This document shows, piece by piece, positions 24,346-62,895 of a stretch of DNA of 64,000 nucleotides; the stretch's first letter is position 1; every line of letters starts with the position of its first letter. The DNA is from Acidobacteriota bacterium. GTDB taxonomy: Bacteria > Acidobacteriota > UBA6911. Under the pieces are notes generated by a model, which did not search any database, had not been told where the DNA came from, and was given only the letters and a program-made list of their open reading frames with translations. The stretch spans positions 128,001 through 192,000 of the forward strand of contig OY761556.1 of the NCBI GenBank assembly GCA_963664705.1, written 5' to 3'. A program made the position numbers and the translations under genes.

Positions 24346-26715
24346 TTAGAAGCGATATCGGAGGTTCATGTACCAGTTGCGACCCGCTTCCGGATAGCCT
24401 TCCTGGTAATAGTAATTGCGATCGAACAGGTTCTTGACCCCTGCCTGCAGGTCCAACCCGGTGCAGATCGGTACGACGCCGCCGAAATCCGCCGTGGCGA
24501 ATTTTGACGCAGGAATGATAAGCCCGGAATCATTGGTGGTGATGGTGCCGCTTTCATACCGGGCTGTTGCCAGAAGCTGAACCCTGCGCGGCAGGCGGAT
24601 GCTTGCCGTACCAATGGCTCGGTGCTTGGGTGTTCCGGTCGGATAGACGCCCAGCATGTTTACCGGTCCTTCCATTGTGCGGTTCAGGAAGGTGTAGTTT
24701 GCGTCCACGGTCAGTCGTGACACTGGCGTGGTGCGGACCGTGAATTCAACGCCCTGGTGGACCTCTTTCCCGATGTTCACGGATTGCTGGCATGTGCCCA
24801 GAGGAAGAGACGGGCATTGAGTCGGGAATTGAGCTGCGATGGTGGCGTTTTGAATGGCGTCATACACATCGCTGCGATACAGGTCCAGCTGCATCATCGT
24901 TTTGAAGGCGAATACGTGGGAATACCCGGCACTCCAGTTTCTGGAATGCTCCGGCTGTATGGCGGTGTTCGGGATTGCCTGACCGTTTTTATACGAATAC
25001 CGGTCCTTGAGCGTGGGGAAGTGACTCTTTTCGGCAAAGGTAAAGAACAGGGTTCCTGAGTTCGCGAACGTATAGGAAATCGATGCCAGCGGGTTGAAGG
25101 TCCAGACATTCAGCAGGCATGCCGTGAACGAATCACTGGCTGCGCCGTTGCAGGGGAAGGGCTCAACCGTGTAGACCGTGGTGGCGTTTTTCCCGCTTCC
25201 GACCGTGGTGGTAACCAGGTTCTGCGCTTTGGCGGCGTTCAGGTGGTCGATGCTGAAACCAAGGGTGGCGCGGAATCGCGACGAAAGCGTGATGGCATCC
25301 TGGAAACCCATCGAATATTGCTGATCCCGGTCGGTTCTCCAGGGCTGATAGGTCGGGACTCCGGCGGTGGAATAGGAAACGCCGGTTTCCTTGTGCGTGT
25401 CGTCCTTATAGAAGAAGGAAGCGCCGAGCGCGTGCCGTGAAAATGAGCGATTGGCGAATTCGGCGGATGTTCCGGCCGAGAAATCGTCATAGGCGGAAGT
25501 GCTCGACAGGGTCGAATAGGTCCCGCTCGAATACTGATTCATGCCATTCGGATATTTGTCGTAGAAGGCACGGAATTTGATGGAACTGGACTCTCCGAGG
25601 CCGGTGTTCGAATTGAAGTAATAGCTCTCCCGGTCCCAGTATGGCCATTGCCAGTAGCGCACCTTGTTGGATTTGGTGTCGTTTCCGGAGTATGGGGGAG
25701 CCGCGTAATCCGCCTTTTGTTTGGTGAAGGTAAAGACGTATTGATCTTCGCTTCTCGGCGTCCAGCCGGCTCTGCCGCTGTATCGCGCATCCCGCGTATA
25801 GGAATTCACCCGATTGTAGTTCGGCTGAGTCGAATTCAAAACAAAGTCGCCGGAAAGGGGATAATAATTGGATTCCAGCCAATCCATGCCGCCGCGGATA
25901 AAAAACTTGTTCCAGCGTGATCCCAGGTGCAATCCCGATTCGAGCAGATGTCCGGAGCCCGTCCCGATCGATGCATCGCCCTCGAGCTTCTTTTCGGGCT
26001 GCCGGCTGACCATATTGACGGCGCCGCCAAGGCCGTTGGGGCCCAGCAGCGGCGAAGAGTAGCCCTTGGCTATCTCAATCTCTGAAATGTCATTGGTAAG
26101 GAAACGGGCAATATCCGCATATCCATCGTAGGGCACAAGAATGGGTACGCCATCCAGGTAGATCCCCACCTGCCGCGTGTCAAATCCACGGATCATGATG
26201 CCTGCCTGGTTCCTGGCTGCCTTGTGGTCTACGGAGACTCCGGGGATAAACTGGATGGATTGAGCCACATTGGTCAAATGAGAATTGGCCATGTCCGTAC
26301 GATCGACGCTGTCGGTAACCGGCGACAGCGGGGAGGTTTCCGCTGTTACGCTGATTTCGGTTACGCCCAGTTCGAACGATTGACCCGGATCTTCCTTAAT
26401 GATCGCTTCGACCGCTTCCTGTAGTGCGGAAACCTGCCCTTTGATCTGCTCCGCATTCCATGGTTGAGCGGGAGCTGCTGCGAGCTTAATGCTTGAATTG
26501 GGGTGCAGCCTCAGCCAGAACTCAACGGCGGTGCGGATCTGAATGACCGCATCCTTTTGGGCCTCGAGCTCAGCTGCCGGCATGGCCTGGATGGAATCGA
26601 GGCTTTCACGCCAGGTAAGAACTTGCTTTGTCTGACCGCTCAGGACGGCAGCCTGACAAAGCAAAGCGAGCAAAACCACAAAGAACCGTATTGACCTGAA
26701 GTTTTTGAAATGCAT
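24346..26715 (-). CDS. TonB-dependent receptor with an extra ~90-aa N-terminal domain
   Basis: Signal peptide; ISVTA TonB box; plug IRGF...DGVP...GGAVN; C-terminal NLFDRNY...GRNWYMNLRYRF. Confidence 0.93.
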   Translation of the reverse strand: MHFKNFRSIRFFVVLLALLCQAAVLSGQTKQVLTWRESLDSIQAMPAAELEAQKDAVIQIRTAVEFWLRLHPNSSIKLAAAPAQPWNAEQIKGQVSALQEAVEAIIKEDPGQSFELGVTEISVTAETSPLSPVTDSVDRTDMANSHLTNVAQSIQFIPGVSVDHKAARNQAGIMIRGFDTRQVGIYLDGVPILVPYDGYADIARFLTNDISEIEIAKGYSSPLLGPNGLGGAVNMVSRQPEKKLEGDASIGTGSGHLLESGLHLGSRWNKFFIRGGMDWLESNYYPLSGDFVLNSTQPNYNRVNSYTRDARYSGRAGWTPRSEDQYVFTFTKQKADYAAPPYSGNDTKSNKVRYWQWPYWDRESYYFNSNTGLGESSSIKFRAFYDKYPNGMNQYSSGTYSTLSSTSAYDDFSAGTSAEFANRSFSRHALGASFFYKDDTHKETGVSYSTAGVPTYQPWRTDRDQQYSMGFQDAITLSSRFRATLGFSIDHLNAAKAQNLVTTTVGSGKNATTVYTVEPFPCNGAASDSFTACLLNVWTFNPLASISYTFANSGTLFFTFAEKSHFPTLKDRYSYKNGQAIPNTAIQPEHSRNWSAGYSHVFAFKTMMQLDLYRSDVYDAIQNATIAAQFPTQCPSLPLGTCQQSVNIGKEVHQGVEFTVRTTPVSRLTVDANYTFLNRTMEGPVNMLGVYPTGTPKHRAIGTASIRLPRRVQLLATARYESGTITTNDSGLIIPASKFATADFGGVVPICTGLDLQAGVKNLFDRNYYYQEGYPEAGRNWYMNLRYRF

Positions 26716-26941
26716 TGTCTCTCTTTCGCTAAACCGTTAAATTAGAATATTCTTATTGCCCGCAATCCACGTCAGGAGGTGGCTTCAGTCTGGGCAGGCC
26801 CCTCTGGAGAAAATTCTCCCAAAGAGCCACAAGATACGCCCATAATGTACCAGATTGTCTTGAAAATATGAAATTCACAATCCGTTTGTAATTGTATGGC
26901 GGGACATGCTAAAAATTGGGAAATGGCTGGAGGATTCGTTA

Positions 26942-27550
26942 ATGTATAGATTGTTTGCTGTTCGCGATGGTCTCGCCGCGGCGGGACGGCTGCATCCTGT
27001 AGCAAAAAATCAGGACCGCATTTCTGCCAATGAAATAGCCCTTTTGTTCGTTTGCGGCGCAGTTTCCGCATCGGTGATTGCCTTTGTGCGGTTGGGCCTT
27101 CGTTTACCCGGGCACTCCATTGTTCTCTCCATGATTCCAATGGCTCTGGGCCTTGCTCTGGCTCCACGCCGTTTTAGCGGATTCATCATGAGCGCCGGCG
27201 CATTTGCCACGGCCTCTGCCTATACCGCCGCGGGACTGGCGCAATACGGTTCCGGTGCATTCGTCAGCCTTTGCCTGCTTGGCCCTATGATGGATCTGGC
27301 CTTAACAAAGGTTAAGGGCGGCCTGCGTCTTTACCTCAGCTTTATTATTGCGGGAATTGCCACTAATCTTATGGCTCTGGCATCACGAAGCACCAGCAAG
27401 TTGTTGATGATTGATCCGGGAACGCGCCCGTTTGGCGGATGGTGGTCTCAAGCCATCATGACCTACTCCCTGTGTGGGGCTCTTGCCGGCCTGATTGCCG
27501 CCCTGTGCTTTTTCCAATTCCGCGCCCGGCAATCGGCAGATTCGGAATAG
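26942..27550 (+). CDS. Integral membrane protein, possibly ECF S-component-like
   Basis: About six hydrophobic helices; LRLPGHS motif; GGAGG RBS; family assignment is inference. Confidence 0.65.
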   Translation: MYRLFAVRDGLAAAGRLHPVAKNQDRISANEIALLFVCGAVSASVIAFVRLGLRLPGHSIVLSMIPMALGLALAPRRFSGFIMSAGAFATASAYTAAGLAQYGSGAFVSLCLLGPMMDLALTKVKGGLRLYLSFIIAGIATNLMALASRSTSKLLMIDPGTRPFGGWWSQAIMTYSLCGALAGLIAALCFFQFRARQSADSE

Positions 27551-27554
27551 CGCC

Positions 27555-28274
27555 GTGGTATTTGTCGGCATTGATGACACAGACATTGTCGGGTCCCCGG
27601 GAACGAACCAGTTAGCCCGCCTGATACTGAGGCGCATTGGTGCGCTGGCTCAGGATGCCGTTATCTGCAGGCACCAGCTTTTCTTTGATCCGCGTGTTCC
27701 GTATACAAGCAAAAATGGGTCGGCCTCCATTCAACTGCCCAAGGCTGTGCCCGGGGATATCCCCGGCCTGACGACTGCCATCCGTGAGGTGATGCTGGGC
27801 TGGTTTGTCGAAGGGAGCGATCCTGGTTTGTGTATAGCGACCGGGGCCACCGATGAAATGATGGCATTCAGCCAGCGCTGCAAATGCGAAGTGATTACCC
27901 AGGAGGAAGCACGGGTGATTGCGGCGCACGCGGACTGCTATCTTGAAGGTTTGGGGGGGACGCAACAGGGCATCATCGGAGCGCTTGCGGCAATCGGCCT
28001 GGTTGTCGGCGGGAACGATGGCCGCATTGTTCATCTGTCCTGGTGGCCTTATCCGGAAGACGGATTTTCCGGCTGTCAGGATATCGAGGCCATTCAGGCC
28101 CGTGGCGTTGATGAGATTCGCCAGGCGCAGTCCGAGTTGCCGGTGACCTCCGGCGTTGTGGATGTCGGCAAGCATCTCCGCCCCAATCGAAGAGGCGGGC
28201 GCATCATTCTTTATGTGGAACCGAATCTCGGCCCGGACTCCACCGCCGCCTGGCGTTCCGTCAAACTTCTTTAG
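27555..28274 (+). CDS. GIDDTD-motif protein (TiaS N-terminal domain-like, lacking the OB fold and Zn ribbon)
   Basis: FVGIDDTD, RHQLF..P.VPYTSKNGS, SDPG, GIIGALAA. Confidence 0.8.
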   Translation: MVFVGIDDTDIVGSPGTNQLARLILRRIGALAQDAVICRHQLFFDPRVPYTSKNGSASIQLPKAVPGDIPGLTTAIREVMLGWFVEGSDPGLCIATGATDEMMAFSQRCKCEVITQEEARVIAAHADCYLEGLGGTQQGIIGALAAIGLVVGGNDGRIVHLSWWPYPEDGFSGCQDIEAIQARGVDEIRQAQSELPVTSGVVDVGKHLRPNRRGGRIILYVEPNLGPDSTAAWRSVKLL

Positions 28275-28350: not shown

Positions 28351-28677
28351 ATGAGAAAAGTTCCTATCCGCTTTCAGGAATTCACCAAAAATTATCCCAA
28401 AATAGCCGCGGCCTACGAGGAGTTGGCGGGAGAGTGCCGGCGTTCCGGACCTCTCAGCGATAGAGATCAGGCGCTGGTGAAGATAGGGATTGCCGCCGGG
28501 GCACAATTGGAAGGTTTGGTGTTATCGCAAGTGCGGAAAGGTTTGGATCTTGGCCTTCAGCCTGACGAGATCCGGCAGGCTATTCTGCTCAGCCTGCCAT
28601 CCATCGGATTTTCCGGCATGATGGCAGCGTTCACCTGGGCGGAGAATGTTCTGAACGAGGAAACCGAACAGAAATAA
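28351..28677 (+). CDS. Carboxymuconolactone decarboxylase (CMD/AhpD-like) family protein
   Basis: GPLSDRDQALVKIGIA, DEIRQAILL...IGF; GGAGG RBS. Confidence 0.85.
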   Translation: MRKVPIRFQEFTKNYPKIAAAYEELAGECRRSGPLSDRDQALVKIGIAAGAQLEGLVLSQVRKGLDLGLQPDEIRQAILLSLPSIGFSGMMAAFTWAENVLNEETEQK

Positions 28678-28700
28678 TATGCGGAATGGAGGAGATCGAA

Positions 28701-29339
28701 ATGGCGAAGATACAGCTTGAACCGAAACCCGGGCCAATGCCCATCCTCGGCTTTTACCCGACCATCATCATTGGGGCCAATGTGGACGGGAAGCCGGATT
28801 TTACCACCGTCGCCTGGACAGGCGTTGCTGCCAGCGTTCCGCCCACCATTACCATCGCGCTCCAGCACCACCGACATTCACTCAAGGGAGTTCGGCAGAA
28901 CATGACTTTCTCCGTCAATATCCCGTCGGCCACCCACGTCAGGGAGACCGACTATTGCGGCCTGGCCTCGGGCGCGCGGGTGGATAAGGCGGCCGATTGC
29001 GGATTTAAGGTTTCCTACGGCAAATTGAAGAGCGCGCCTTTTGTTGAAGAATGCCCCATCAGCCATGGCTGCGAAGTTATTCAAATCCTTCACCTGGGAA
29101 GCCACGAATTAATCGTCGGGAAAATTGTGGACACCCACATTTCGGAGGAATGTCTGACCAATGGCAGGCCGGACCCGGCTAAGGTGGACCCGATTGTGTT
29201 TGCCGGCACGGGATATTACCGGATTGGCGATCGCCTTGGGGATGCCTTCCGGTGCGGCATCGACATCAATCCCAAGGCAAAGCTGGATACTCTCGAAGAG
29301 ATCAAGAAATTCAGCGAGAAGGGGATATCGGAAGCCTAG
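28701..29339 (+). CDS. Flavin reductase family protein (flavoredoxin-like)
   Basis: VAWTG, FSVNIPS, DYCGLASG..VDK, APFVEECP, GSHELIVG. Confidence 0.88.
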   Translation: MAKIQLEPKPGPMPILGFYPTIIIGANVDGKPDFTTVAWTGVAASVPPTITIALQHHRHSLKGVRQNMTFSVNIPSATHVRETDYCGLASGARVDKAADCGFKVSYGKLKSAPFVEECPISHGCEVIQILHLGSHELIVGKIVDTHISEECLTNGRPDPAKVDPIVFAGTGYYRIGDRLGDAFRCGIDINPKAKLDTLEEIKKFSEKGISEA

Positions 29340-29469: not shown

Positions 29470-30177
29470 ATGTCTGAAGCCCAGAAAACCGGAGATACGA
29501 AGAAAAAGGTTTTGAGGCGTGATTTTCTCGCTGGCGGCGGAGCAGCTATTGCCGCGGGTGCGCTAGGAATGGTCTCTGCGCCGGTCGAGGCAGCGGCCCA
29601 GGCTGGTGCAAAGGCTAATCTTGCTCCCTCTACGGGATATATCGTTTATGACAGCCGGCTGTGTCTTGGTTGCCAGAGTTGTATGTTTGCCTGCTCGATG
29701 ACCCACGAAGGGGAGGGGAGTCCTTCGTTGTCCAGGATTCAGATTATCCGGGATGCCCCGTCTTTTACCAAATATCCCTATGACATCGTGATGTCCGTCT
29801 GTCGGCAGTGCGTTTCTCCCTTGTGCGTCCAGAACTGTCCGACCGGCGCCTGTCATGTCGATGCCGCCAATGGAAATATCCGGAGGATCGATCAATCCAA
29901 GTGTGTCGGATGTCAGCGATGTATCCAATCCTGTCCGCAGCGACCCCATCGAACCGTCTGGAACCCGGTCAAGAAGAAATCAACCAAGTGTGACCTGTGC
30001 GCCGATGCACCGTTCTGGAGCCAGAAGGGCGGACCGGAAGGGGCGCAGGCTTGCATCCAAAATTGTCCGGCCAAGGCACTGAAGCTTGTCAAGGATCCGC
30101 CGCCCCAGTTGGATGTGGCTGGTTATGACGTGAATCTCGCGCCGCCCCCCAAAGCCACTCCGGCGGTAAAAATATAG
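29470..30177 (+). CDS. Tat-exported 4x[4Fe-4S] protein (YdhY/DmsB-like); near-duplicate of 53796-54539
   Basis: LRRDFL Tat motif; CLGCQSCMFAC, CRQCVSPLCVQNCP, CVGCQRCIQSCP, KCDLC. Confidence 0.88.
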   Translation: MSEAQKTGDTKKKVLRRDFLAGGGAAIAAGALGMVSAPVEAAAQAGAKANLAPSTGYIVYDSRLCLGCQSCMFACSMTHEGEGSPSLSRIQIIRDAPSFTKYPYDIVMSVCRQCVSPLCVQNCPTGACHVDAANGNIRRIDQSKCVGCQRCIQSCPQRPHRTVWNPVKKKSTKCDLCADAPFWSQKGGPEGAQACIQNCPAKALKLVKDPPPQLDVAGYDVNLAPPPKATPAVKI

Positions 30178-30208
30178 CGGATCTTGCATCACTGATCTCA
30201 AGGGCGAG

Positions 30209-30238
30209 AAGGCTCCAAAGAACTCCTGGAGCCTTTTT
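30209..30238 (+). terminator. Putative intrinsic terminator
   Basis: aaggctcca...tggagcc followed by ttttt. Confidence 0.55.
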
Positions 30239-30258
30239 GCATTTAAGGGGAGGGTTCT

Positions 30259-31167
30259 ATGGAAAATGTAAACGGAAAGGTTGCATTCATCACCGGTGGA
30301 GCCAGCGGCATCGGTCTGGGAATAGCCAAGGCGTTTGTGAGTGCCGGAATGAAGGTCATGATCGCGGATATTCAGGAAGACCGGATGCGCGACGCCATGC
30401 TCGGCTTTCAGAAACTCGGGCAGGACGGCAGCGTCCGTTGCCTCAAACTGGATGTAACTGATCGCAAAGCGTTTGCCTGGGCTGCCGATGAGACGGAACG
30501 ATTGCTGGGCAATGTGCATGTGCTTTGCAACAATGCCGGTATCGGGATTCTCGGATCCATCAAGCTTACGAAATTTGATGATTGGGACTGGGGAATCAGC
30601 GTCCTTATTGGCGGCGTGGTCAATGGGATCCAGACCTTCCTGCCGCGCATGCTCAGTCATGGCGAGGGTGGACACATCATCACCACATCTTCAATGGGCG
30701 GGGCGCTGCCTCTGTCCGGATCCCCAGTCTATTCCACGGCAAAGGCGGGCGTGATCGCGATGTGTGAATGTCTGCGCGGTGACCTGGCGGCCGATAATAT
30801 TGGCGTCTCCGCATTTTGTCCGGGGCCGGTGGCCACGAATATTCGAGAGGCCGGCGCTCTCAGACCGGAACAATACCGATCGAACAGCGGCCTTGCGAAC
30901 CTGGAAAAGGAATTGGCCAGCAGGGAGAATTCTCCGAATTGGATGAGCATTGAGGAATGCGGAGAACGGGTGCTGCAGGGGATCCGCCGCAACGACCTGT
31001 TTATCTTCACCCATCGGGAGTTCAAAGAGGGTGTTGCCGAACGGATGCAAGCGATGCTGGAGTCTTTCCCGGATGAGGAGATCAATCAAAAGCGAGCGGC
31101 AGAAATTCCGTATTTGATCTCAAACCCGATTTATCGACAGGCGCTGGAGGCGATCCGGAAACGTTGA
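30259..31167 (+). CDS. Short-chain dehydrogenase/reductase
   Basis: TGGASGIG, NNAG, YSTAK. Confidence 0.93.
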   Translation: MENVNGKVAFITGGASGIGLGIAKAFVSAGMKVMIADIQEDRMRDAMLGFQKLGQDGSVRCLKLDVTDRKAFAWAADETERLLGNVHVLCNNAGIGILGSIKLTKFDDWDWGISVLIGGVVNGIQTFLPRMLSHGEGGHIITTSSMGGALPLSGSPVYSTAKAGVIAMCECLRGDLAADNIGVSAFCPGPVATNIREAGALRPEQYRSNSGLANLEKELASRENSPNWMSIEECGERVLQGIRRNDLFIFTHREFKEGVAERMQAMLESFPDEEINQKRAAEIPYLISNPIYRQALEAIRKR

Positions 31168-31184: not shown

Positions 31185-31979
31185 TTACTGCTGGAGAGCG
31201 GGGAAGCAGACCTTGCGCTCCACCGATTCGCCGGCGGATACGACTCGCACCTCCACCCCATAGGCGGATCTCAAATTTTCCTCTGTGATGACATCGTCGG
31301 GTGCGCCTATTTGCGAGATTTTGCCTTTATTGAGAATAACCACGCTGTCCGCGACCAGAAAAGTGTGATCCGGGAAATGGGTGGCCATGATGATGGTCAT
31401 TCCATCCAGGGTCAGCCGTCTGATCGCCTGAAGTATCTTCGTCTGGTTCCCCAGGTCCAAATGCGACGTTGGCTCATCCAGCAATAACAACTGCGGTTTC
31501 TGCACCAGGGCTCTTGCGATAAGGGCAAGCTGCCATTCCCCTCCACTGACAGAATTGCACGGACGGTCCGCCAGGTGCAGAATTCCGGCAGTCTCCATGG
31601 CTTCGTGCGCAATCTTCATGTCGTTTTTGGATGGGGAGGCCAGGATGCTCAGGTGCGGCGCCCGTCCCATGACAACGATGTCCTTAATCCGGAAAGGGAA
31701 GGCGGACGTCAGGCCCTGCGGCACATAGCCTATCCGTCGGGCGATTTCAGACAGTTTGAAACTGAACAGGTCCTGCCCATCGAAAAGAATATTGCCCTGC
31801 TGGATGTGCAGAATTCCGCTCAGGCATTTGAGAAGCGTGGATTTGCCGGTTCCGTTCGGGCCCAGGAGACAAAGCACCTGTCCAGGCAGGACCGAAAACG
31901 AGAGGCTGTGAAACACGGCGGCCGCTGAATCCTGGTGATAACTGAAGGAAATGTCGCTTGCCTGCATTCGGAATGTCAT
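31185..31979 (-). CDS. FecE/BtuD-type ABC ATPase
   Basis: GPNGTGKST, SGGE, LLLDEPTSHLD. Confidence 0.92.
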   Translation of the reverse strand: MTFRMQASDISFSYHQDSAAAVFHSLSFSVLPGQVLCLLGPNGTGKSTLLKCLSGILHIQQGNILFDGQDLFSFKLSEIARRIGYVPQGLTSAFPFRIKDIVVMGRAPHLSILASPSKNDMKIAHEAMETAGILHLADRPCNSVSGGEWQLALIARALVQKPQLLLLDEPTSHLDLGNQTKILQAIRRLTLDGMTIIMATHFPDHTFLVADSVVILNKGKISQIGAPDDVITEENLRSAYGVEVRVVSAGESVERKVCFPALQQ

Positions 31980-31981
31980 GT

Positions 31982-33049
31982 TTACCACGCGGGTCGATTC
32001 TTTCGCAAAAGATAGGCAAAGATCGGAGCCCCGATGATTGCGGTCAGAATCCCGATGGGGATTTCGGTTTCCATCGCCGTCCTGGCAATGAGATCGACGC
32101 TTACAAGATAAATGGCGCCGATGAGTGCGGACACCGGCAGCAGATACTTGTTGTCCGCGCCGACGAGTATTCGGCCAATATGCGGAATCACCAGTCCCAC
32201 CCATCCGATAACCCCGCTGATGCAGACAGCCGCGGCCGAAATCAGCGTCGCGGAAATGATAATGATGCCGCGGATCTGGCCCGTGTTGACGCCAAGAGCG
32301 CGCGCATCTTCTTCCCCCATCGTCAGAAGATTGATTCGCCAGCGGATGAGATATAAGGCAACGATACCGGCCACGATTATTGGCCCCACCACTGCGATAT
32401 CTCTGTTTGAGGCGTTGTTCAGCGATCCCAATAACCAGAATACGATCGAAGGCATCTGGTTGACCGGGTCCGCGATGTATTTCATCAGGGATGTAGCTGC
32501 CGAAAAGAGCGCTCCGATAATGATTCCCGCGAGAACCAGCATCAAAACGGGCGTGCTGCGATAGGTTCGGCTCAACGCATAGGTCAGGAATACGGCAGCC
32601 AGTCCAAAGACGAACGAAAGCAATTGGACCATGAAGACGTTGCCGAAGAAAAGGATGCCGATAGCGGCTCCGAATCCGGCCCCGGCCGATACTCCCAGGA
32701 TATGAGGAGAAACGAGCGGATTCCGGAACAGCCCTTGAAACGAGGCTCCGGAAATGGAGAGACCTGCGCCAATCAGCAGGCCTGCCAGGAGACGGGGCAA
32801 CCGTACATCGATAACCACGGATTCCAATGTCGCCGGCCAGTCAGCCTGCAATGTTGAGATGCGGGAAACCAGGATCTTGAGGATCAGTCCCGGCCGAATG
32901 TGCATCTGCCCCGATATCAGGGAAACAATGCAGATGGCGAAAACCGCTGCGACAAGAAATAGCTGCAGTTTTCGCGGCTCGAAGAGATGTTCTCCGCGGG
33001 CTGGATTCACGCCCGCTGGAGTTGCGTGCTGCTGCGACGCCGGGCTCAT
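31982..33049 (-). CDS. FecCD/BtuC-type ABC permease
   Basis: RLPR, FRNPLV.P.ILGVS.GA, GWVGLVIPH. Confidence 0.93.
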   Translation of the reverse strand: MSPASQQHATPAGVNPARGEHLFEPRKLQLFLVAAVFAICIVSLISGQMHIRPGLILKILVSRISTLQADWPATLESVVIDVRLPRLLAGLLIGAGLSISGASFQGLFRNPLVSPHILGVSAGAGFGAAIGILFFGNVFMVQLLSFVFGLAAVFLTYALSRTYRSTPVLMLVLAGIIIGALFSAATSLMKYIADPVNQMPSIVFWLLGSLNNASNRDIAVVGPIIVAGIVALYLIRWRINLLTMGEEDARALGVNTGQIRGIIIISATLISAAAVCISGVIGWVGLVIPHIGRILVGADNKYLLPVSALIGAIYLVSVDLIARTAMETEIPIGILTAIIGAPIFAYLLRKNRPAW

Positions 33050-49740: not shown

Positions 49741-49751
49741 GGAGTTTGAGC

Positions 49752-51623: not shown

Positions 51624-51704
51624 ATAAATCCTCCATTGAGTGGGATTCTCTATGAATATGCCTGTCAGTCAAGGAGGAAATCAAACCAGAGGATAGCCGA
51701 AAAC

Positions 51705-51751
51705 GAAAAACGCCACGGATTCCCTGATTTGCGAAATCCGTGGCGTTTTTC
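51705..51751. terminator. Bidirectional intrinsic terminator
   Basis: gaaaaacgccacggatt / aatccgtggcgtttttc. Confidence 0.8.
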
Positions 51752-51771
51752 TCAGCTTTTACGCGCTTGCT

Positions 51772-53793: not shown

Positions 53794-53795
53794 TT

Positions 53796-54539
53796 CTATG
53801 CTCCTCCTGTCTTCGCTGCCGGTTTTGGAGCTCCGCCGGGAGGTCCAAACTGCTTCGGGGCGGGAGCAAGATTAATGTCGTAGCCGTTGATATCCTGTTG
53901 CGAGGGAGCTTCAGCAACAAGCTTGAGAGCTTTCGCCACGCATGTCTCCACGCAGGCCTGTTTTCCGCCCGGACCGCCTTTCTGACTCCAGAAGGGCGCA
54001 TCGGTGCATAGATCGCATTTGGTCGATTTTCTCTTTGCGGCGTTCCATACAGTGCGGTGCGGCCTCTGCGGACAAGATTGAATACAGCGCTGGCAGCCGA
54101 CGCATTTCGTCTGGTCGATCCTTCTGACATTGCCGTTGGCTGTGTCCACATGACAGGCTCCGGTGGGGCAGTTCTGGACACACAAGGGAGACACGCACTG
54201 GCGGCAGACAGACAGTACAACGTCATAGGGGTACTTCGTAAAGGATGGCGCGTCGCGAATGATCTGAATGCGCGACAAGGTTGGATTGGCTTCTCCTTCA
54301 TGTGTCATGGAGCAGGCGAACATGCAACTCTGGCAGCCAAGGCACAGCCGGCTGTCGTAAACGATATATCCGGTCGAAGCAGGATAGGAAGCCTTGGCCG
54401 TCGCCTGCGTCAGGGCAGCCGCGGATTCCGGGGCGCACACCGCCAAAGCCCCGGCCGCTATGGCAGCTCCGCCGCCGGCCAGAAAATCACGTCGTAGTAC
54501 TTTTTTTTCTTTGCTTTCGGCTTTTTGGGATTCAGCCAT
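53796..54539 (-). CDS. Tat-exported 4x[4Fe-4S] protein (YdhY-like), probable partner of the AOR-family enzyme
   Basis: LRRDFL Tat motif; four ferredoxin Cys motifs; 2 bp from the AOR-like start. Confidence 0.88.
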   Translation of the reverse strand: MAESQKAESKEKKVLRRDFLAGGGAAIAAGALAVCAPESAAALTQATAKASYPASTGYIVYDSRLCLGCQSCMFACSMTHEGEANPTLSRIQIIRDAPSFTKYPYDVVLSVCRQCVSPLCVQNCPTGACHVDTANGNVRRIDQTKCVGCQRCIQSCPQRPHRTVWNAAKRKSTKCDLCTDAPFWSQKGGPGGKQACVETCVAKALKLVAEAPSQQDINGYDINLAPAPKQFGPPGGAPKPAAKTGGA

Positions 54540-54840: not shown

Positions 54841-55755
54841 ATGAATAAGGAGATGCTCACAACGGATGATCTAGCGGAATATCTGAGCATTCACAAAAAC
54901 CAGATATATCGCCTGATCAAGGAAAAGCGACTCCCCGCCACGCGGGTAACGGGTAAGTGGCTCTTTCCGAAACGATTGGTCGATGAGTGGGTTATTGCCA
55001 GTGCCAAAGAGAGCGTCCAGGGAGAGCCAAAGAAAGATCCTCCGGAGAACCGGATTGTCATTGCGGGCAGCAATGATATTGCCCTGGAGATGCTGGCCAA
55101 AAAGGTACACGCGCGGTTTCCCCATTTCAATGTTTCGCTTTCCAATGTGGGAAGCCTTGCCGGATTGAATGCGCTGCGACGAGGGACCTGTCATATCGCG
55201 GCCTCTCACCTGCTGGATACAGAGACCGGGGAGTACAACAATTCCCACGTTCGGAAGTACTTCCCCGACCTCAACGTCAGGATCATCAATCTTGCGCACC
55301 GCGAACAGGGACTGCTCATGAAAAAGGGGAACCCGTTGCGCGTTGCCAAACTGGAAGACCTAGCATCTCGGAAGGGCACGTTCATTAATCGGCAGGACGG
55401 ATCTGGAACCAGGGTGCTGCTGGATTTTCTGCTGAAGGAACATCATGTCGATCCGTCGGAAATTCCCGGCTATGACACCGTGGCCTATACGCATCTGGAG
55501 GTGGGGGTAGCGATTCTCCAGGGATCCGCTCAGATCGGAATGGGAATTCGTGCGGTTGCACAGTTGCTTGGCTTAGATTTCATTCCTCTTGCCAACGAGA
55601 GATTCGATCTGATCGTACCAACCCAATGGCACGATGCCGAACCTGTCCGTGCTTTATGCCGGTCCCTTGCACTCGATGATTTCAAAACAACCGTTTCCTG
55701 CATGGGAGGATACGAAACCTACGATACCGGCAGGGTTATGTACGAGAAGGGATGA
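54841..55755 (+). CDS. Excisionase-type HTH plus PBP-like (molybdate/tungstate-binding) transcriptional regulator
   Basis: LTTDDLAEYL...YRLI...LPATRVTGKWLF; GSND, GSLAGL, AASHL, REQGL, NRQDGSGTR. Confidence 0.88.
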   Translation: MNKEMLTTDDLAEYLSIHKNQIYRLIKEKRLPATRVTGKWLFPKRLVDEWVIASAKESVQGEPKKDPPENRIVIAGSNDIALEMLAKKVHARFPHFNVSLSNVGSLAGLNALRRGTCHIAASHLLDTETGEYNNSHVRKYFPDLNVRIINLAHREQGLLMKKGNPLRVAKLEDLASRKGTFINRQDGSGTRVLLDFLLKEHHVDPSEIPGYDTVAYTHLEVGVAILQGSAQIGMGIRAVAQLLGLDFIPLANERFDLIVPTQWHDAEPVRALCRSLALDDFKTTVSCMGGYETYDTGRVMYEKG

Positions 55756-55810: not shown

Positions 55811-56353
55811 ATGCGCCTACTACTGAAGAGTGTTGTTTTCTGCGTTGTTGCCTGCACAATTGCCCGGACCGTTCCTGCCCAGGAGCCTGCCGCCGTTTTA
55901 TCCGTTCGCGGAGATCTTCAAAAGCCCGTCCAATGGTCCGCAGATGAATTGAAGTCAAAATTCGCTGCACAGGTTAAGGAAATCAAGTTCATGGGAGGAA
56001 TGGATAAGTCGACCCATGTGGGAACCGGAGTCCCGCTGCTGGCACTAATCCAGGGCGTTGCGCTTAAGACGGATTCGGCCGTTAAACACCACGACTTGAA
56101 ATTCCTGGTTGTCGTCGAAGCTCACGATGGGTATCGCGTGATGTTTTCCCTGGCTGAACTAATGCCCCAAGGCGGCAATGCCGAAGCCTGGCTGCTTTGG
56201 AATGTGGATGGGAAACCGCTTTCGGGAAAAGAATTGCCATTCCGGCTCGTAGTTCCGACGGACAAGGCCGGAGACCGGGCAATTTTCGGCGTTACCCAGA
56301 TTCTATTGGCCGATGGCGTCAAGGTTGCGAATCAACTGAAGGCCGGTCAGTAA
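55811..56353 (+). CDS. Exported small sulfite-oxidase/molybdopterin-binding-like protein lacking the Mo-ligating Cys
   Basis: Signal peptide; L.VRG, TGVPL..L, AHDGYR..FSLAEL, DGKPL...PFRLVVP. Confidence 0.7.
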   Translation: MRLLLKSVVFCVVACTIARTVPAQEPAAVLSVRGDLQKPVQWSADELKSKFAAQVKEIKFMGGMDKSTHVGTGVPLLALIQGVALKTDSAVKHHDLKFLVVVEAHDGYRVMFSLAELMPQGGNAEAWLLWNVDGKPLSGKELPFRLVVPTDKAGDRAIFGVTQILLADGVKVANQLKAGQ

Positions 56354-56359
56354 TAACGG

Positions 56360-56395: not shown

Positions 56396-56587
56396 CCGGG
56401 CGTCTGCACCCTGTTCCTCAAGCCTCTTTCCCGTTTATTTTAACAGCCAGGTGATTGCGCCTTTTTTGCTCCGTGGGTGACATGCCGCCCCAAGGATGCT
56501 GCGGCGGCATTCTTGGCGTTAATGCCGTAATAATCCAAAAAATAACAAAATATTACTAGAAAGAACAAATTATGCTATAATGCAGCT

Positions 56588-56658
56588 ATTCTCTAAGCCA
56601 TGGAGATGGAGAGGGCCGGGATTAAGCTTAGGCTTTATTTCCCGGCCCTCTATTTTTT
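56588..56658 (+). ncRNA. Candidate sRNA B (sibling of 24141-24219)
   Basis: Perfect extended -10 TGcTATAAT at 56573-56581; TCTCTAAGCCATGGA; 12-bp stem 56610-56621 with 56640-56651; then atttttt; no ORF downstream on this strand. Confidence 0.55.
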
Positions 56659-57233: not shown

Positions 57234-58109
57234 CTAACGGCTATTCATCAGTTTTCTTCCTTCCGGGGAATTGGGGAAGAATAGAGGTTCTCCATATTTG
57301 TCTTTCCCAAAATCACGAATGATGATTTGGGCCGCTTGAGACTGCAGCCAATGGATAAATTCCATGGCCTCCCGATAATGAACCTGCGGAAATTTCCCGG
57401 GATTTACGGGAATAAGTGTGATGAAGTTCAGTAACGCCTCATCTCTTTCGACCAGGATTTGCAGGGTGGTCTTTGACCTCATCGTAACATACGTAGCCCG
57501 ATCCATAATTGTATAGGCCTGATTTGCCTCTGCGTAGGCAAGTGTTGGTGCATTCCCTTTGGCCCCCTGCTCAAAGACCCGATACCATTCGCCCCGCGCT
57601 TCTAAGCCGGCCCTCTGCCAGATCTCCCGCTCCTTTATATGTGTTCCGGATTTGTCTCCGCGTGATACGAACAGGGATCCGGATTCCGCAATTTTGCGCA
57701 GCGCCTGTGCCGCATCCGTCATGGATCGGATTCCTGCCGGATCCTGCGCCGGTCCCAGGATAACGAAGTCGTTATACATCAGGTCGTATCGCCCGGTGCC
57801 AAATCCCTCTGCTATAAATTTGTCCTCCAAAGCTCGCGCATGGACAAGCACCAGATCGTATCGGCCGGTTTCCGCCAGTTTCAGGGCCTCTCCGGTTCCG
57901 GCGCCCTGGTGCTGAACACGGATACCCGTTTGAGCGGAAAAAGACTCTTCCAGCTTTCCGACAATGCCCGCATCGATGGGCCCGATGGTGCTGGCCAGCA
58001 TAAGGGTTGGTTTATCAGAAGGGCCGCGGCTCGGAGTGTCTCCCGATGGATAAAGGCTATTGGTTGCGGATAGCGCTATCATAAGCAGCAAGAAGCCTGG
58101 TGAGAGCAA
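57234..58109 (-). CDS. TupA-like periplasmic oxyanion-binding protein (variant STIGP motif)
   Basis: GTGEAL, LVHA, MYNDFVILGP..DPAGI, SRGDKSGTH, DRATY, FGKDKYGEPLFFP. Confidence 0.85.
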   Translation of the reverse strand: MLSPGFLLLMIALSATNSLYPSGDTPSRGPSDKPTLMLASTIGPIDAGIVGKLEESFSAQTGIRVQHQGAGTGEALKLAETGRYDLVLVHARALEDKFIAEGFGTGRYDLMYNDFVILGPAQDPAGIRSMTDAAQALRKIAESGSLFVSRGDKSGTHIKEREIWQRAGLEARGEWYRVFEQGAKGNAPTLAYAEANQAYTIMDRATYVTMRSKTTLQILVERDEALLNFITLIPVNPGKFPQVHYREAMEFIHWLQSQAAQIIIRDFGKDKYGEPLFFPNSPEGRKLMNSR

Positions 58110-58150
58110 ATCGATCTCCGTTTGCTATTGGCTCGCTCGATTCCCGGCGG

Positions 58151-59257
58151 TCAGTGACTGTCAGAGCCAGCCGGAATCAAGTGAACGGAAGCGGGTGGAA
58201 AGAAGGCGCAAATCTCCTGTCCCTCCTCCAGATTCATCTTTGAAAAACTCTCGCGGGTTACGAGAGATACCAGCGGGATGCCGCAATCCAGGCTCAGCCT
58301 GGCAAACGGTCCCATCGAATAAATATGGGTGATCTTTCCTGCAAGGATATTTTGCGAACCCTCCGGGTCATTCATTTCCTGTGTGCCGACGCGGATATTT
58401 TCCGGACGTATGCAGCATAAAACCGCTTCGCCCGGCTGACCATTGCCGTACGCACGGATTTCCTTTCCGGCAACCGAGATTGCCTGCTGCCCTTCAGCGG
58501 AGCGCAAAACGGTTCCACTCAAGATGACTTCCATGCCAACAAGCTTTGCGACAAATTCGTTGACCGGATTCTGCATGACATCCGAAGGGCTCCCAAGTTG
58601 CGCGATCCGGCCAAGGTTCATGACGGCAATTCGCCTGGACAGAGTCAATGCCTCAAATTCCACATGGGTCACCATGACGGTGGTTGTTCCGGTTGCCTGA
58701 ACGACTTTGTCGAGATCGTGAATTACGCCGTGACGCGTAGGGGGATCCAGCGCGGAGAAGGGTTCGTCCAGCAAAATGATCTCGGGTTCAATCGCAAAGG
58801 CTCGAGCCAGGCTGGCACGCTGGGATTCTCCCCCTGAAAGCTTGCGTGCGGAGCGCTCGGCCAGGTGCCCGATGCTGAACAGATTCAGATATTTTTCAAC
58901 ACGCTCCCGGATACGATTCTTTGAGAGTCCACGGAATTTCAGCCCCGCGGCCACATTATTGTAGACGGAGGTGTCGAACAGCAGCGGTTCCTGGAAGACC
59001 ATGGCTATTTTTCTGCGAAACCGAAATATCGCCTCATGGGAATCCAGAGGTTTGCCTCGATAGGAGATACTGCCGGAAACAGGCTTCAGAAGACAGGCCA
59101 GCGTCAACAGCAGGGTTGACTTGCCGCTCCCGTTTGGGCCCACAACGGTCAGGACTTCCTTGTCATTGAGGCGCAAAGACGGGATGTCGAGGACAAGAAC
59201 ATTGCCAAGCGCAACCCTGAGATCTTCGGCTGACAGGAGGATGTCTGAAGCGCTCAC
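58151..59257 (-). CDS. tupC: Tungstate ABC transporter ATPase with TOBE domain
   Basis: GPNGSGKST, LSGGESQR, LLDEPF; C-terminal TOBE; in operon with tupAB. Confidence 0.85.
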   Translation of the reverse strand: MSASDILLSAEDLRVALGNVLVLDIPSLRLNDKEVLTVVGPNGSGKSTLLLTLACLLKPVSGSISYRGKPLDSHEAIFRFRRKIAMVFQEPLLFDTSVYNNVAAGLKFRGLSKNRIRERVEKYLNLFSIGHLAERSARKLSGGESQRASLARAFAIEPEIILLDEPFSALDPPTRHGVIHDLDKVVQATGTTTVMVTHVEFEALTLSRRIAVMNLGRIAQLGSPSDVMQNPVNEFVAKLVGMEVILSGTVLRSAEGQQAISVAGKEIRAYGNGQPGEAVLCCIRPENIRVGTQEMNDPEGSQNILAGKITHIYSMGPFARLSLDCGIPLVSLVTRESFSKMNLEEGQEICAFFPPASVHLIPAGSDSH

Positions 59258-59952
59258 CGGGGCCTCTCGCGCTGCTGTATCAAGGTAAAGAGATAGTTTA
59301 CAAGGAATACCAGGGCCAGCAGGATGATCGAAAGTGCAAAAGCAATATCGAAATTTCCCCTTCCTGTTTCCATCACCGTTGCCGTGGTCAAAACTCTCGA
59401 GTATCCTTTGACGTTCCCACCCACCATGATGGAGGCGCCAATTTCCGAGATCACTCCGCCGAATCCTGCCATGACGGCGGCCATGAATGGTAAACGGGCT
59501 TCTCGGGCAAGCAGCCAGACCATCTGCAGACGCGTTGCCCCCAGAGATAGAATCTGCATTCGAAGCATTGGGGGAAGACTCTGGAGTGCTGCGACGGACA
59601 GGCCCATGACAATAGGCGTGGCAATCACAACCTGAGCCAGAATCATTGCACCTGGTGTGAACAGTAGATTTAGAAAACCGAGCGGGCCATTACGCCACAG
59701 GATTACCGTAACAAAAAGCCCGACCACAACCGGGGGCAGTCCCATTCCCGTATTAATGGCACTGATTACGAGTTTCTTGCCGGGAAACTGTGTCAGTGCA
59801 ATTACCATTCCCAGCGAAATCCCGATGACGACACTGATGAGCGTGGCGGTTCCGGAAACCTTGAGTGACAGCCATGTAATGGCCAGCACCTCGCGATCGA
59901 GCGATGCGATGAGGCGAAAGGCTTTCAAAAGGCCTTCAAGAATCAGATCCAC
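59254..59952 (-). CDS. tupB: Tungstate ABC transporter permease
   Basis: GLPPVVVGL, LLFTP.AM, GFGGVISEIGA..VGGN, RVLTTA. Confidence 0.92.
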   Translation of the reverse strand: MDLILEGLLKAFRLIASLDREVLAITWLSLKVSGTATLISVVIGISLGMVIALTQFPGKKLVISAINTGMGLPPVVVGLFVTVILWRNGPLGFLNLLFTPGAMILAQVVIATPIVMGLSVAALQSLPPMLRMQILSLGATRLQMVWLLAREARLPFMAAVMAGFGGVISEIGASIMVGGNVKGYSRVLTTATVMETGRGNFDIAFALSIILLALVFLVNYLFTLIQQRERPR

Positions 59953-60807
59953 CTAGTAGGTCTCCATGTCTTTTCTTCCGGCATCCGGGAAGAAAAGCGG
60001 CGTGCCATATTTTTCAATGCCAAATGTCCGGATAATCTGCTGCCCCTTGGGCGAAACCAGAAAATCCGAGAATGCCTTGGCTCCACTGGAGTTCACCTTG
60101 GGCCATTTTGCCGCACTCACTTCCATGACGTGATAAACATTTAGCAGTAATGGATCTCCCTCAACCAGGATATTGAGTCCGAGAGTTTTCTTTAGCGATA
60201 GATAGGTTCCTCTGTCGGCGAGGGTATAGCCCCTTTTTTCGGCTGTAACATTCAGTGTCTGCCCCATGCCAAGGCCCGTTTGTTGATACCATGCCTGGCC
60301 GTCCACGGTCAGATCTGCTGCTTTCCAGAGTTTCTTTTCAAGAGCGTGTGTCCCGGAATTGTCGCTGCGCGAGAAGAACTGGGCTTTGCGTTGAGCAACT
60401 TTCAGCAACGCATCCTTTGCCGATTTCATCCCTTTGATTTTTGCGGGATCCGCCGGCGGTCCGACAATAACGAAGTCATTGTGCATGACCAGCCTTCGGT
60501 TGATGCCAAAACCCTGTCCAACCACCTGTTTTTCGGCATCCGGTGAGTGGGCCAGAAGAACATCCGCTTCTCCCTTTTCTCCCATTTTCAGCGCCTGGCC
60601 GGAACCAACGGCAATCGTTTTTACAATGTAGCCGCTTTCCTTCTCGAAAACCGGGATCAGCACGTCGAGCAATCCGGAATCCTGCGTGCTGGTTGTGGTT
60701 GCCAAGATTATGCTTTTGTTCTCCTGGGCGATGCCTGATGGCAAAATGCAAGCAGCAAGCAAGAAGAGCAGCAGAGTTGCTGATGACAGGCGTTTTCCGC
60801 AGGGCAT
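59953..60807 (-). CDS. tupA: Tungstate-binding protein
   Basis: Signature ATTTSTQDSGLL; AVGSGQAL; MHNDF; SRSDNSGTH. Confidence 0.93.
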   Translation of the reverse strand: MPCGKRLSSATLLLFLLAACILPSGIAQENKSIILATTTSTQDSGLLDVLIPVFEKESGYIVKTIAVGSGQALKMGEKGEADVLLAHSPDAEKQVVGQGFGINRRLVMHNDFVIVGPPADPAKIKGMKSAKDALLKVAQRKAQFFSRSDNSGTHALEKKLWKAADLTVDGQAWYQQTGLGMGQTLNVTAEKRGYTLADRGTYLSLKKTLGLNILVEGDPLLLNVYHVMEVSAAKWPKVNSSGAKAFSDFLVSPKGQQIIRTFGIEKYGTPLFFPDAGRKDMETY

Positions 60808-61208: not shown

Positions 61209-61464
61209 AGATATCCCTATCCGCGTTCTCGCTACGCCAGTAAATACGCGGGCCGGCAACGCATGTTTCTGGAGAAAGGCTCTAGGGGTTTCCCGATCGT
61301 CTTCCTTCTGGGCTTATCGCAGCAATGGGCAAAATTCTCTGTTGTCTGAAGGAGGAATATAATGGATACCGGTGAGCAATACATCAGGACCAAGGCAAAC
61401 TCATTTCCTTTATGCTCCCGCGAAAACCCAAGCGAGGCGGTTGGATGATGCGGGATGGGAGTTT

Positions 61465-62895
61465 TTATCTTCCGCGCTTCACCAGCTTAATCGTCTGAAG
61501 CGTCGTATACTCCTCGAGCCCGTAGCGGCCGAATTCCACGCCGATTCCGGATTCCTTGACTCCGCCAAAAGGGGCGTTGGGCTGAATGGCCGCGTGATCG
61601 TTAATCCAGGCAGTTCCGCACTCCAGCCGGCCGGCGAGCTCTTTTGCCTTGTTTAAATCACTGGACCAAATGGAGCCGCCTAATCCGTAGCAGCTTCGAT
61701 TGGCTCTTTGAATCGCATCCTCGACATCGGAATATTTGATGATCGGGAGAATAGGGCCAAATTGCTCTTCATCGACAAGCCTTGAGCCGTCTTCAATGTC
61801 TGCAACCAGCGTGATCGGAAAAAAATATCCCGGGCCTTGCATTGGTTCACCGCCACAGAGGAATCGTGCCCCCGCTCTCCTGGAGTCCTCGGCCAGCGCG
61901 CAGACGAAATCCAGTTGATCTTTGTTTTGGAGCGGGCCGAAATCCACATCTTCCAGAAGGCCATTGCCGACCTTCACCGTCCCGGCAATCGATGCCATTT
62001 CCCTGCCTATGGCTTCGTATATGCTTTCATGAACATACAGCCTCTTCAGACAGGCACAGGTTTGCCCGCTGTTGTGAAATCCCACTCTGAAAAGCTCTGG
62101 TGCAACCTCTTTCGGATCCACATCCGGAAGCACAATACCGGCATCGTTTCCTCCCAGTTCCAGCGTGCATCGTTTGAGGCTCGCTGCCCCATTTTTCATG
62201 ATGCTCTTCCCGGTCGGCGTTGATCCCGTGAAGACGATCTTTCTGATCCCGGGATGGCTGGCCATCGCGCTTCCAATGCCGTTTTCGGCGGTCAGGATGT
62301 TCAGCACTCCCGGCGGTAGGATTTCATTGGCAAGTTCCACAAATCGCAGTGTTGCCAATGGAGTGAGGGAGGAAGGTTTGATGATGACTGTGTTGCCGGA
62401 TCGGATCGCCGGCATCATGTGCCAGATCGCGATCATGAGGGGCCAGTTCCATGGAGGAATGGAGCCCACAACGCCAATGGGTTTGCGATAGGCCTCTACG
62501 CGGGCTTCTGCATTGTCTTGAATAAGGTCCACCGGGAGCGCCAATTCGGCCGTTGCCCGGGTCCAGCCGACCGCGCCTCCCAACTCCATGCCGGCTCCGA
62601 TTCCCTGGTACCCTCTCAGCGGCTTTCCACTCTCCCGGGTCAACAATTCCATCAACTCCGCACTGTTTTTTTCGAGAATATCCGCCAAAGCGTTCACTTT
62701 CGCCTTGCGCGTGTTGTCTTCCTCTGACCTCCAGGATGCAAAAGCGTTTTCCGCGGCGTCGACCGCCTGGTCCAGGTGAGTGCTTTCTGCTGCCGGGCAT
62801 TGGGCAAAGACTTCGCCCGTAGCCGGATTGCGCACTCCAAACGTTCTCTGTGTGGATATCTTTTTGCCGTTGATGATCAGTCCGTATGTACTCAT
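61465..62895 (-). CDS. NAD(P)-dependent aldehyde dehydrogenase
   Basis: PWNWP, KPS, FTGSTPTG, LELGGND, SGQTCAC, EEQFGP, PFGGVKESG. Confidence 0.95.
   Translation of the reverse strand: MSTYGLIINGKKISTQRTFGVRNPATGEVFAQCPAAESTHLDQAVDAAENAFASWRSEEDNTRKAKVNALADILEKNSAELMELLTRESGKPLRGYQGIGAGMELGGAVGWTRATAELALPVDLIQDNAEARVEAYRKPIGVVGSIPPWNWPLMIAIWHMMPAIRSGNTVIIKPSSLTPLATLRFVELANEILPPGVLNILTAENGIGSAMASHPGIRKIVFTGSTPTGKSIMKNGAASLKRCTLELGGNDAGIVLPDVDPKEVAPELFRVGFHNSGQTCACLKRLYVHESIYEAIGREMASIAGTVKVGNGLLEDVDFGPLQNKDQLDFVCALAEDSRRAGARFLCGGEPMQGPGYFFPITLVADIEDGSRLVDEEQFGPILPIIKYSDVEDAIQRANRSCYGLGGSIWSSDLNKAKELAGRLECGTAWINDHAAIQPNAPFGGVKESGIGVEFGRYGLEEYTTLQTIKLVKRGR

Follow-up and report, generated by a model that had tools for sequence, protein, structure and literature searches.

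RyhB, PrrF and IsrR are iron-sparing small RNAs (sRNAs) under the control of Fur, and the members of the AOR family mostly use tungsten (W). Here, we describe an island in a 64,000-nt stretch of the genome of an Acidobacteriota bacterium (contig OY761556.1, positions 128,001 to 192,000; hereafter the window) that carries two TonB-dependent receptors, three Fec-type ATP-binding cassette (ABC) transporters, AOR-family enzymes and tupABC. A common repeat operator and a candidate sRNA suggest that the island probably forms the uptake side of a regulon for tungsten limitation, by which the metal would be imported, substituted and spared. The preliminary description of this DNA had proposed that the island imports and remodels an organic W or molybdenum (Mo) species to supply the AORs.

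The closest described systems concern import, regulation and pterin binding. Free molybdate and tungstate are taken up in Haemophilus influenzae by MolABC, a Fec-type importer whose binding protein MolA binds both (PMC4031551). TaoR is defined by an HTH_17 domain and a PBP-like domain (PMC11980592) and is reported to be tungstate-responsive (PMC12327845). In Methanosarcina acetivorans, ModE is reported to bind the promoters of two "Fe ABC" operons as well as radical SAM promoters (PMC12327845), and DUF364 is described within the modABC operon of Methanococcus maripaludis (bioRxiv 2024.03.05.583561) and beside modABC in an account that predicts flavin- or pterin-like substrates for it (PMC2954201); these cases are precedents for the inner-membrane part of the island. 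PruR is reported to bind reduced pterins, and its site is described as likely unable to hold the molybdenum cofactor (Moco) (PMC13259868). A literature search of titles and abstract openings, in which most subscription papers were not covered, found no tungsten TonB receptor and no W/Mo-sparing sRNA. How scarce tungsten crosses the outer membrane of Gram-negative anaerobes and how it is rationed among many tungstoenzymes are open questions in the field. The locus supplies named parts, namely a receptor family, an operator and a 15-nt seed with specific predicted targets, and gives first functional handles on the GEGP, DUF364, radical SAM–AlkP-like and PruR-like proteins.

Repeat operator and candidate small RNA

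The genome is a single contig of 6.89 Mb. The elements on which the argument turns are given below; coordinates are positions within the window unless given as genome-contig coordinates.

24140..24217, minus strand: candidate sRNA copy 1, with a 5' seed, a long interrupted hairpin and a U-rich tail; no Rfam match
24245..24290, strand not assigned: repeat operator/promoter region of sRNA copy 1 (the weaker copy), by matrix score and alignment
24346..26715, minus strand: TonB-dependent receptor 1, with a family-specific N-domain
31185..34122, minus strand: Fec-type ABC 1, made up of ATPase, permease and binding protein (SBP1); MolA is the second PDB match of SBP1
34335..35534, plus strand: GEGP diheme exported protein (NF041762, 442 bits)
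39562..39594, plus strand: repeat operator over the predicted promoter of receptor 2 (22.3 bits, genome rank 2 with the sRNA-trained matrix)
39610..42033, plus strand: TonB-dependent receptor 2
54841..55755, plus strand: TaoR-type HTH_17-PBP regulator, candidate operator-binding protein
56528..56560, minus strand: repeat operator of sRNA copy 2 (genome rank 1 with both operator matrices)
56590..56658, plus strand: candidate sRNA copy 2
61465..62895, minus strand: NAD-type aldehyde dehydrogenase (ALDH), predicted W-independent substitute
63017..63049, minus strand: repeat operator 5' of the aldehyde dehydrogenase (14.1 bits, genome rank 3)

The upstream regions of the receptor genes of congeners hold a common AT-rich motif of TTGTwAT-like repeats with a 10-bp period, which overlaps the predicted promoter. 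The best match of this receptor-promoter matrix in the genome fell in the gene-free gap at 56528. In this gap, and again in the one behind receptor 1, there is a copy of a conserved element of approximately 75 nt, in which the operator is followed by an extended -10-like sequence, a near-invariant unpaired stretch of 15 nt (the seed), an interrupted hairpin and a U-rich tail. A second matrix, trained only on 11 sRNA elements of congeners, gave 11 matches in the genome, and the top six were the 56528 element, receptor 2, the ALDH, an XOR operon just past the window's right edge, a ferredoxin-AOR operon and an XOR-GEGP2 operon. Among the congeners, 14 matches lay outside the 11 training sites, at sRNA, receptor, GEGP, SBP1 or linked genes, while none was found in 89 AOR loci, and control-receptor loci were matched only in one stretch that overlaps the island. 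Outside the genus, the matrix matched five sites, and four of these adjoin a receptor, tupA, modA or GEGP. The operator marks an importer, a Mo-type oxidoreductase, a metal-free ALDH and an RNA apparently aimed at AORs, a set that would be expected for derepression in tungsten shortage. Two more conserved upstream motifs, distinct from the operator, occur at loci with or typical of XRE-HTH-PBP regulators (5' of the receptor at L021, L026, L029 and L034; 5' of tupA-like genes at L039, L041, L042 and L047 and of the receptor at L049 and L050).

A covariance model of the element found it in 18 of 24 congeners and in none of 17 genomes outside the genus, and all 18 carriers have an ortholog of the TaoR-type protein. 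Eight of the 18 stem pairs change on both sides, a figure that relatedness inflates; none of 500 shuffles reached it, and slid controls fell short. Conservation is higher in the unpaired seed and in the operator before it than in the stem, and both seed and operator persist in ten copies that were not used for model building and that vary in orientation to their neighbors. The element is a short conserved non-coding element with an unpaired seed and a terminator-like stem, as in RyhB-type RNAs, and it is predicted to be expressed as a repressing small RNA.

The seed was compared with one ATG per gene, picked by Shine-Dalgarno strength alone, so that 2363 of approximately 5,770 called open reading frames (ORFs) qualified, 29 of them AOR or Tat-ferredoxin genes. 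AOR/Tat-ferredoxin starts took ranks 1, 2, 5, 6 and 8 of 2363. Among the 255 Met-Ala starts, 5 of the 15 belonging to AOR or ferredoxin genes were in the top 5%, which none of 150 flank-shuffled seeds achieved. The copy 2 seed gave ranks 1, 2 and 3. Other genes with Fe-S motifs were absent from the top 1% (0/73). For replication, 89 of 97 AOR loci from five congeners were used together with starts from 80 other loci of the genus: at -17 kcal/mol or below, there were 15 of 107 AOR/ferredoxin starts against 0 of 387 controls, and 14 of 54 against 0 of 23 when only Met-Ala starts were counted. Shuffled seeds reached this excess in 0/300 trials by fraction and 2/300 by mean. The seed is complementary to the start codons of a subset of AOR/Tat-ferredoxin operons.

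Receptor family and its neighborhood

The two receptors, described as paralogs in the preliminary description, are indeed 45% identical and have in common an N-domain of approximately 85 aa that is absent elsewhere in the genome and has no Pfam match; a sequence search of the PDB with receptor 2 returned nothing informative. Homologs of receptor 2 (E ≤ 1e-40) were present in 21 of 24 congeners and in none of 16 other genomes of the class. With fragments and weak matches excluded, 20 of the 21 carrier genomes gave 31 stretches, each at most 20 kb long. These were compared with 40 control stretches, two from each of the 20 genomes, that surround TonB receptors outside the family; references and thresholds were identical for both sets. 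A gene for an oxyanion uptake protein or a regulator (TupA-like, modAB, Mop or HTH-PBP) lay near 13 of the 31 family receptors against 2 of the 40 controls (genome background, 1.8%), and the counts were 15/31 and 4/40 with Mo/W enzyme genes added (background, 9.8%). The 13 positive loci span several gene orders, though kin genomes are not independent, and one of them runs tupA-like, receptor, modA, modB and modC, with modA above the TIGR01256 cut-off. A TupA-like gene stood directly beside the receptor at seven loci, and Fec-type ABC genes occurred at only five of the 31.

GEGP (cut-off of NF041762, 300 bits) lies directly beside the receptor at 8 of the 31 loci. A search of 150 other Acidobacteriota genomes gave no match, but in another phylum 20 of 301 genomes have it. 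Of the 20 loci there, 11 contain tupA within the fetched stretch, 14 have a phosphate-selective porin O/P no more than 600 bp away and 13 have any strict marker. The receptor that flanks GEGP here therefore occupies the position held by the porin elsewhere. The GEGP proteins of the other phylum have long C-terminal extensions and are often found in porin-GEGP-tupA operons. Receptor and GEGP are thus linked to tupA and modABC. Conserved adjacency to aor was not found: the gene occurred at only 4 of the 31 receptor loci, at 2 of the 80 loci of the radical SAM–AlkP-like pair and at 1 of the 20 GEGP loci.

The claim that the island has no B12 riboswitch was confirmed: the window has no cobalamin riboswitch, and nine above the cut-off lie in other parts of the genome. 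A profile built from these nine, all of which were recovered in leave-one-out trials (9/9), gave 21 matches in 16 of the 40 control-receptor loci and none in 120 island-type loci or the 20 GEGP loci. The scores of the BtuB and BtuF families were not reached either, and B12 was rejected. Together, the neighborhood and riboswitch controls and the common operator support the earlier view that the island is linked to Mo/W rather than to B12 or Fe.

Some control receptors outside the family (L158, L164, L177 and L178) adjoin sulfite-oxidase-like genes, AOR or TaoR-tupABC, and a second W/Mo-linked receptor family may exist. Proteins with a signal peptide and a tetrapyrrole-methylase fold (L076:1844-3604; L061:7611-9221; genome contig 1139834-1140739) recur by mod genes and receptors. 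Some of them are fused to a sulfite-oxidase-like domain, and the presence of an exported SAM-fold enzyme is unexplained.

Other parts of the island and accessory proteins

All genes named in the preliminary description were found; those not listed above are as follows, together with the items it had overlooked (besides the two candidate sRNAs, these are the ECF-S-like protein, CMD, flavin reductase, orphan Tat ferredoxin, SDR, second TupA-like protein and the extension of the island beyond the window).

26906..27550, plus strand: membrane protein resembling ECF S-components, a lead only (atlas matches 0.90-0.93; PF09819 on 31% of one cluster's members)
27495..28274, plus strand: GIDDTD protein, TiaS N-terminal/methanogenesis marker 11-like (weak matches)
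28351..29339, plus strand: CMD-family protein and flavin reductase-like protein
29470..31167, plus strand: orphan Tat ferredoxin and SDR; the ferredoxin is 80% identical to the 53796-54539 protein
35731..39491, plus strand: Fec-type ABC 2 and class I methyltransferase
42114..44970, plus strand: Fec-type ABC 3; best PDB match of its binding protein (SBP3), MolA, E 3e-38
44979..47116, plus strand: radical SAM protein and degenerate, apparently permuted AlkP-like protein, a gene pair conserved across phyla
47113..49370, plus strand: DUF364 protein, exported methyltransferase and exported Zn deaminase
49453..54539, minus strand: Tat ferredoxin, two AOR-family enzymes and MoaD
55811..56353, plus strand: exported PruR-like minimal sulfite-oxidase-fold protein without catalytic Cys
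57234..60807, minus strand: tupA, tupB, tupC and second TupA-like protein

The island runs past the right edge of the window (genome contig 191227-201024) with an AEC permease, a MobA-like transferase, a NifU-like protein, a cysteine desulfurase (NifS) and two XOR-family Mo enzymes, one of whose genes bears the operator. The genome has at least 21 AOR-family ORFs, and five congeners have 15–22 AOR matches each; this high gene number implies an unusually high demand for pyranopterin metal in the genus. Many AOR-family genes pair with Tat-signal ferredoxin subunits (e.g., 51772-54539), suggesting periplasmic AORs, and twin-arginine leaders were present on all nine Tat-ferredoxin paralogs inspected. 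The orphan Tat ferredoxin (29470-30177) has no adjoining AOR and starts with Met-Ser, hence it has no seed match; loci L024 and L053 show the same arrangement of this gene with the RNA element and the genes for SDR, flavin reductase and CMD.

The three FecBCD-type sets were identified by PF01497, PF01032 and PF00005. MolA was the closest solved relative of SBP3, and the relatives of the binding proteins also include Ni-His and siderophore-type proteins. SBP3 homologs carry a His-His site unlike that of MolA; by alignment, the His and one Tyr of the MolA binding site appear to be kept and two side-chain ligands do not. The tupABC genes are present as described, with TupA and TupB below the NCBIfam cut-offs (230/400 and 151/320). 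The TTTS motif is present in TupA1 and absent from TupA2 (157 against the cut-off of 400).

The radical SAM protein is nearest to the AmmeMemoRadiSam family, with a score of 136 under the cut-off of 220. Its AlkP-like partner (45983-47116) has no Pfam match; its model (pLDDT 89.8) matched phosphonoacetate hydrolase/NPP in Foldseek (E 9e-5, TM 0.33-0.37 over approximately 220 columns). The AlkP/NPP fold that had been claimed is thus partially matched, and the protein appears to be permuted as claimed, judging from the partial matches and the motif order. The usual Zn ligands and Ser/Thr nucleophile appear replaced in the alignment. In the best 80 of 155 loci, six of them from close Acidobacteriota and overlapping the genus set, the pair was accompanied by Fec-type ABCs, receptors, methyltransferases, deaminase, DUF364 and FmdE. 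Cultured organisms that have the pair include Syntrophorhabdus aromaticivorans and Desulfuromonas sp. CSMB_57. Strict markers were found at 17 of the 80 and any Mo/W marker at 26 (tup, 5; mod/MOT1/ModD/ModE, 11; aor, 2), leaving 54 without one in the fetched stretch.

Two Cys-less proteins of the sulfite-oxidase fold had been proposed. The term Cys-less is correct for the catalytic Cys only. The fold was matched for the 55811 protein, whose model (pLDDT 80.5) resembles sulfite-oxidase domains and, by target-normalized TM (0.70-0.78), best the pterin-binding PruR proteins; PDB searches with its sequence and its alignment returned nothing informative. GEGP has two CxxCH motifs, and the fold was not confirmed for it, with no Pfam or PDB match. 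The exported deaminase has a signal peptide and an intact HAE/PCxxC site and resembles TadA, cytosine and guanine deaminases. All 23 of the homologs compared keep the site, one of them with Gly in place of Ala. MoaC was found in all 51 carrier genomes searched and in 11 of 14 control genomes, and obligate cofactor salvage by auxotrophs was rejected.

A second TaoR-type gene (genome contig 623947-625914) is followed by an exported sulfite-oxidase-like protein and lies beside moeA, moeA-PBP and an AOR, and the start codon of this AOR is a top seed match. To the left of the island, a rex-like gene heads a cluster of bifurcating [FeFe]-hydrogenase and maturation genes (10287-23768), with a Rex-type palindrome upstream (23784-23813). 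The window also contains an Rfam Acido-Lenti-1 match (9895-9948) and short repeats at 23930-24100 (a heptamer run and a G-run), of which many copies occur across the genome.

Tungsten-limitation model, rival explanations and known systems

In the proposed model, a W/Mo-sensing repressor would bind the common operator, and by its position and the reported behavior of TaoR the TaoR-type protein is the likely repressor. Tungsten shortage, or a high Mo:W ratio, would lift the repressor, allowing expression of the metal importers, the tungsten-independent aldehyde oxidizers (Mo-type aldehyde oxidoreductase and metal-free ALDH) and the small RNA, which would keep some of the AOR operons from being translated. 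Passage of a W (or Mo) species through the outer membrane would fall to the receptors, which would stand in for the phosphate-selective porin found beside GEGP in another phylum. The metal would reach the TupA-, ModA- and MolA-like binding proteins mainly as oxyanion, and GEGP, the PruR-like protein, deaminase, methyltransferases, radical SAM–AlkP-like pair and DUF364 would free it from, or handle, complexed forms. Which way the regulation runs, and which protein exerts it, are predictions from sequence. A full sparing response, in which a tungstate-sensing repressor governs W-dedicated TonB receptors that take up tungstopterin or other W complexes, the metal is stripped in the periplasm in the way that heme is mined for iron, Mo- and NAD-dependent enzymes act as substitutes and the sRNA silences chosen AOR isoenzymes, is doubtful.

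Several observations weigh against the tungsten-limitation model. The copy 1 operator is weak, with 16.2 bits by the receptor-promoter matrix and less than 11 bits by the sRNA-trained matrix, and the promoters of tupA, modA, moeA and most AORs of the genome rank low and are without the operator. One ferredoxin-AOR operon bears it, which pure W starvation does not explain and which fits only if that AOR uses Mo or is activated; Escherichia coli YdhV is reportedly a Mo-using AOR. Neither RNA element has a canonical promoter or terminator by a simple consensus scan, and the Hfq match is weak (29 vs 61.7 bits). The complementarity of the seed to Met-Ala starts was first spotted by eye and tested afterwards, the control of the copy 2 seed was weaker (7/150 shuffles), and the overall Met-Ala rank test in congeners was null (p 0.49), so that only a subset would be targeted; several of the congener targets are orthologs. 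The congeners are kin, so the p-values overstate the case. Five of the 13 positive receptor loci depend solely on divergent TupA-like proteins, and those linked to receptors are approximately 31% identical to TupA, score 52 against the cut-off of 400 and have no TTTS motif. At the 80 loci of the radical SAM–AlkP-like pair, Mo markers (11) outnumber tup markers (5), and the specificity for W may fail across phyla.

That an organic species (tungstopterin, a pterin derivative or a metallophore) is imported and remodeled for the AORs, with the cofactor reused or the metal stripped in the periplasm, is somewhat doubtful; this explanation is partly compatible with the regulon model, as it assumes the same regulon and a different ligand. 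The PruR-like fold, the conserved Zn site of a deaminase whose solved relatives act on amino-heterocycles, the ECF-S-like protein, the His-His site of SBP3 and the substrates predicted for DUF364 speak for it, and a pterin component is plausible by the first three of these. Against it stand the MoaC genes of all carriers, the 26 receptor loci without Fec-type genes, the seven with TupA-like neighbors, the pairing of GEGP with an oxyanion-type porin in another phylum, the likely inability of the PruR site to hold Moco and the apparent loss of Zn ligands and nucleophile from the AlkP-like protein. The premise that a TonB receptor combined with a Fec-type ABC signifies an organic ligand is weak, because MolA binds molybdate and tungstate, and Fec-type architecture does not require such a ligand. 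Few Fec-type genes at receptor loci, TupA-like neighbors and the likeness to MolA favor oxyanion delivery; of the earlier proposal, the Mo/W link is thus retained, and the organic ligand is a putative one.

It is very unlikely that the island serves another metal or a vitamin (Fe, Ni, Co, B12 or a thiamine-like compound), with the RNA as an iron-sparing RyhB analog and the W/Mo genes as mere neighbors in a region of anaerobic metabolism. The Ni-His and siderophore-type relatives of the binding proteins, the 54 marker-free loci of the radical SAM–AlkP-like pair, the fact that AORs are also Fe-S proteins and two Fur-family genes in the genome, one approximately 5 kb from the operator-bearing AOR operon, could be read in this way. 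The absence of B12 riboswitches from island-type loci against their presence at control loci, the absence of the operator from other TonB receptor loci and the lack of seed preference for other Fe-S genes argue otherwise, and iron shortage is not expected to induce an Fe-S/Mo XOR. The Fur consensus matched the window seven times, always with 6 mismatches of 19 and once in the gap upstream of tupA; an iron/Fur reading is disfavored. It is unlikely that the RNA element is a mere terminator or cis-leader, its match to AOR start codons a coincidence and the island an ordinary Mo/W uptake cluster. The hairpin and U-tail anatomy, the position of several copies 5' of same-strand genes and the lack of a called promoter would suit this. 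The orientation to neighbors, however, varies between same-strand, divergent and convergent, the seed and operator are more conserved than the stem and are kept in ten copies outside the model, and the target signal was replicated in congeners beyond the reach of shuffled seeds.

Compared with known systems, the island resembles RyhB, PrrF and IsrR in having a short RNA under the operator of uptake genes, a seed predicted to lie over the start codons of metal-consuming enzymes and metal-independent substitutes alongside. It differs from RyhB-type systems in that the predicted targets are the AOR family and not Fe-S proteins generally, and in that the operator is a 10-bp-period repeat and not a Fur box; unlike the RyhB family proper, the RNA has no Rfam match, no convincing Hfq and no Fe-S targets. 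With MolABC, it has in common a class III binding protein, a FecCD permease and an ATPase, with SBP3 closest to MolA, while its three Fec-type systems, receptors and enzymes set it apart. The HTH_17-PBP-like regulator adjoining aor, moaD and tupABC recalls TaoR, and the literature searched gave no TaoR, ModE or TunR regulon in which one operator governs an outer-membrane receptor together with W-independent substitutes and an sRNA. The 55811 protein resembles PruR in being exported, approximately 170-180 aa long and of minimal sulfite-oxidase fold without the catalytic (Mo-ligating) Cys; it differs in its identity of 14–16% and in having no dcpA/DTB partner, its neighbors being the TaoR-type gene and the RNA element, and PruR-like proteins are located behind a TaoR-type gene or a receptor. 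The accessory families that recur around the radical SAM–AlkP-like pair are those of the DUF364/FmdE/ModD/methyltransferase/Fec-ABC neighborhoods of anaerobes; the pair of radical SAM and degenerate AlkP-like protein, GEGP and the receptor family are each without a characterized member. By the features compared, the island does not belong to the RyhB, BtuB or PruR-DcpA systems; in the way it is proposed to work, it resembles MolABC and ModE/TaoR-type regulons together with sparing of the Fur/RyhB kind.

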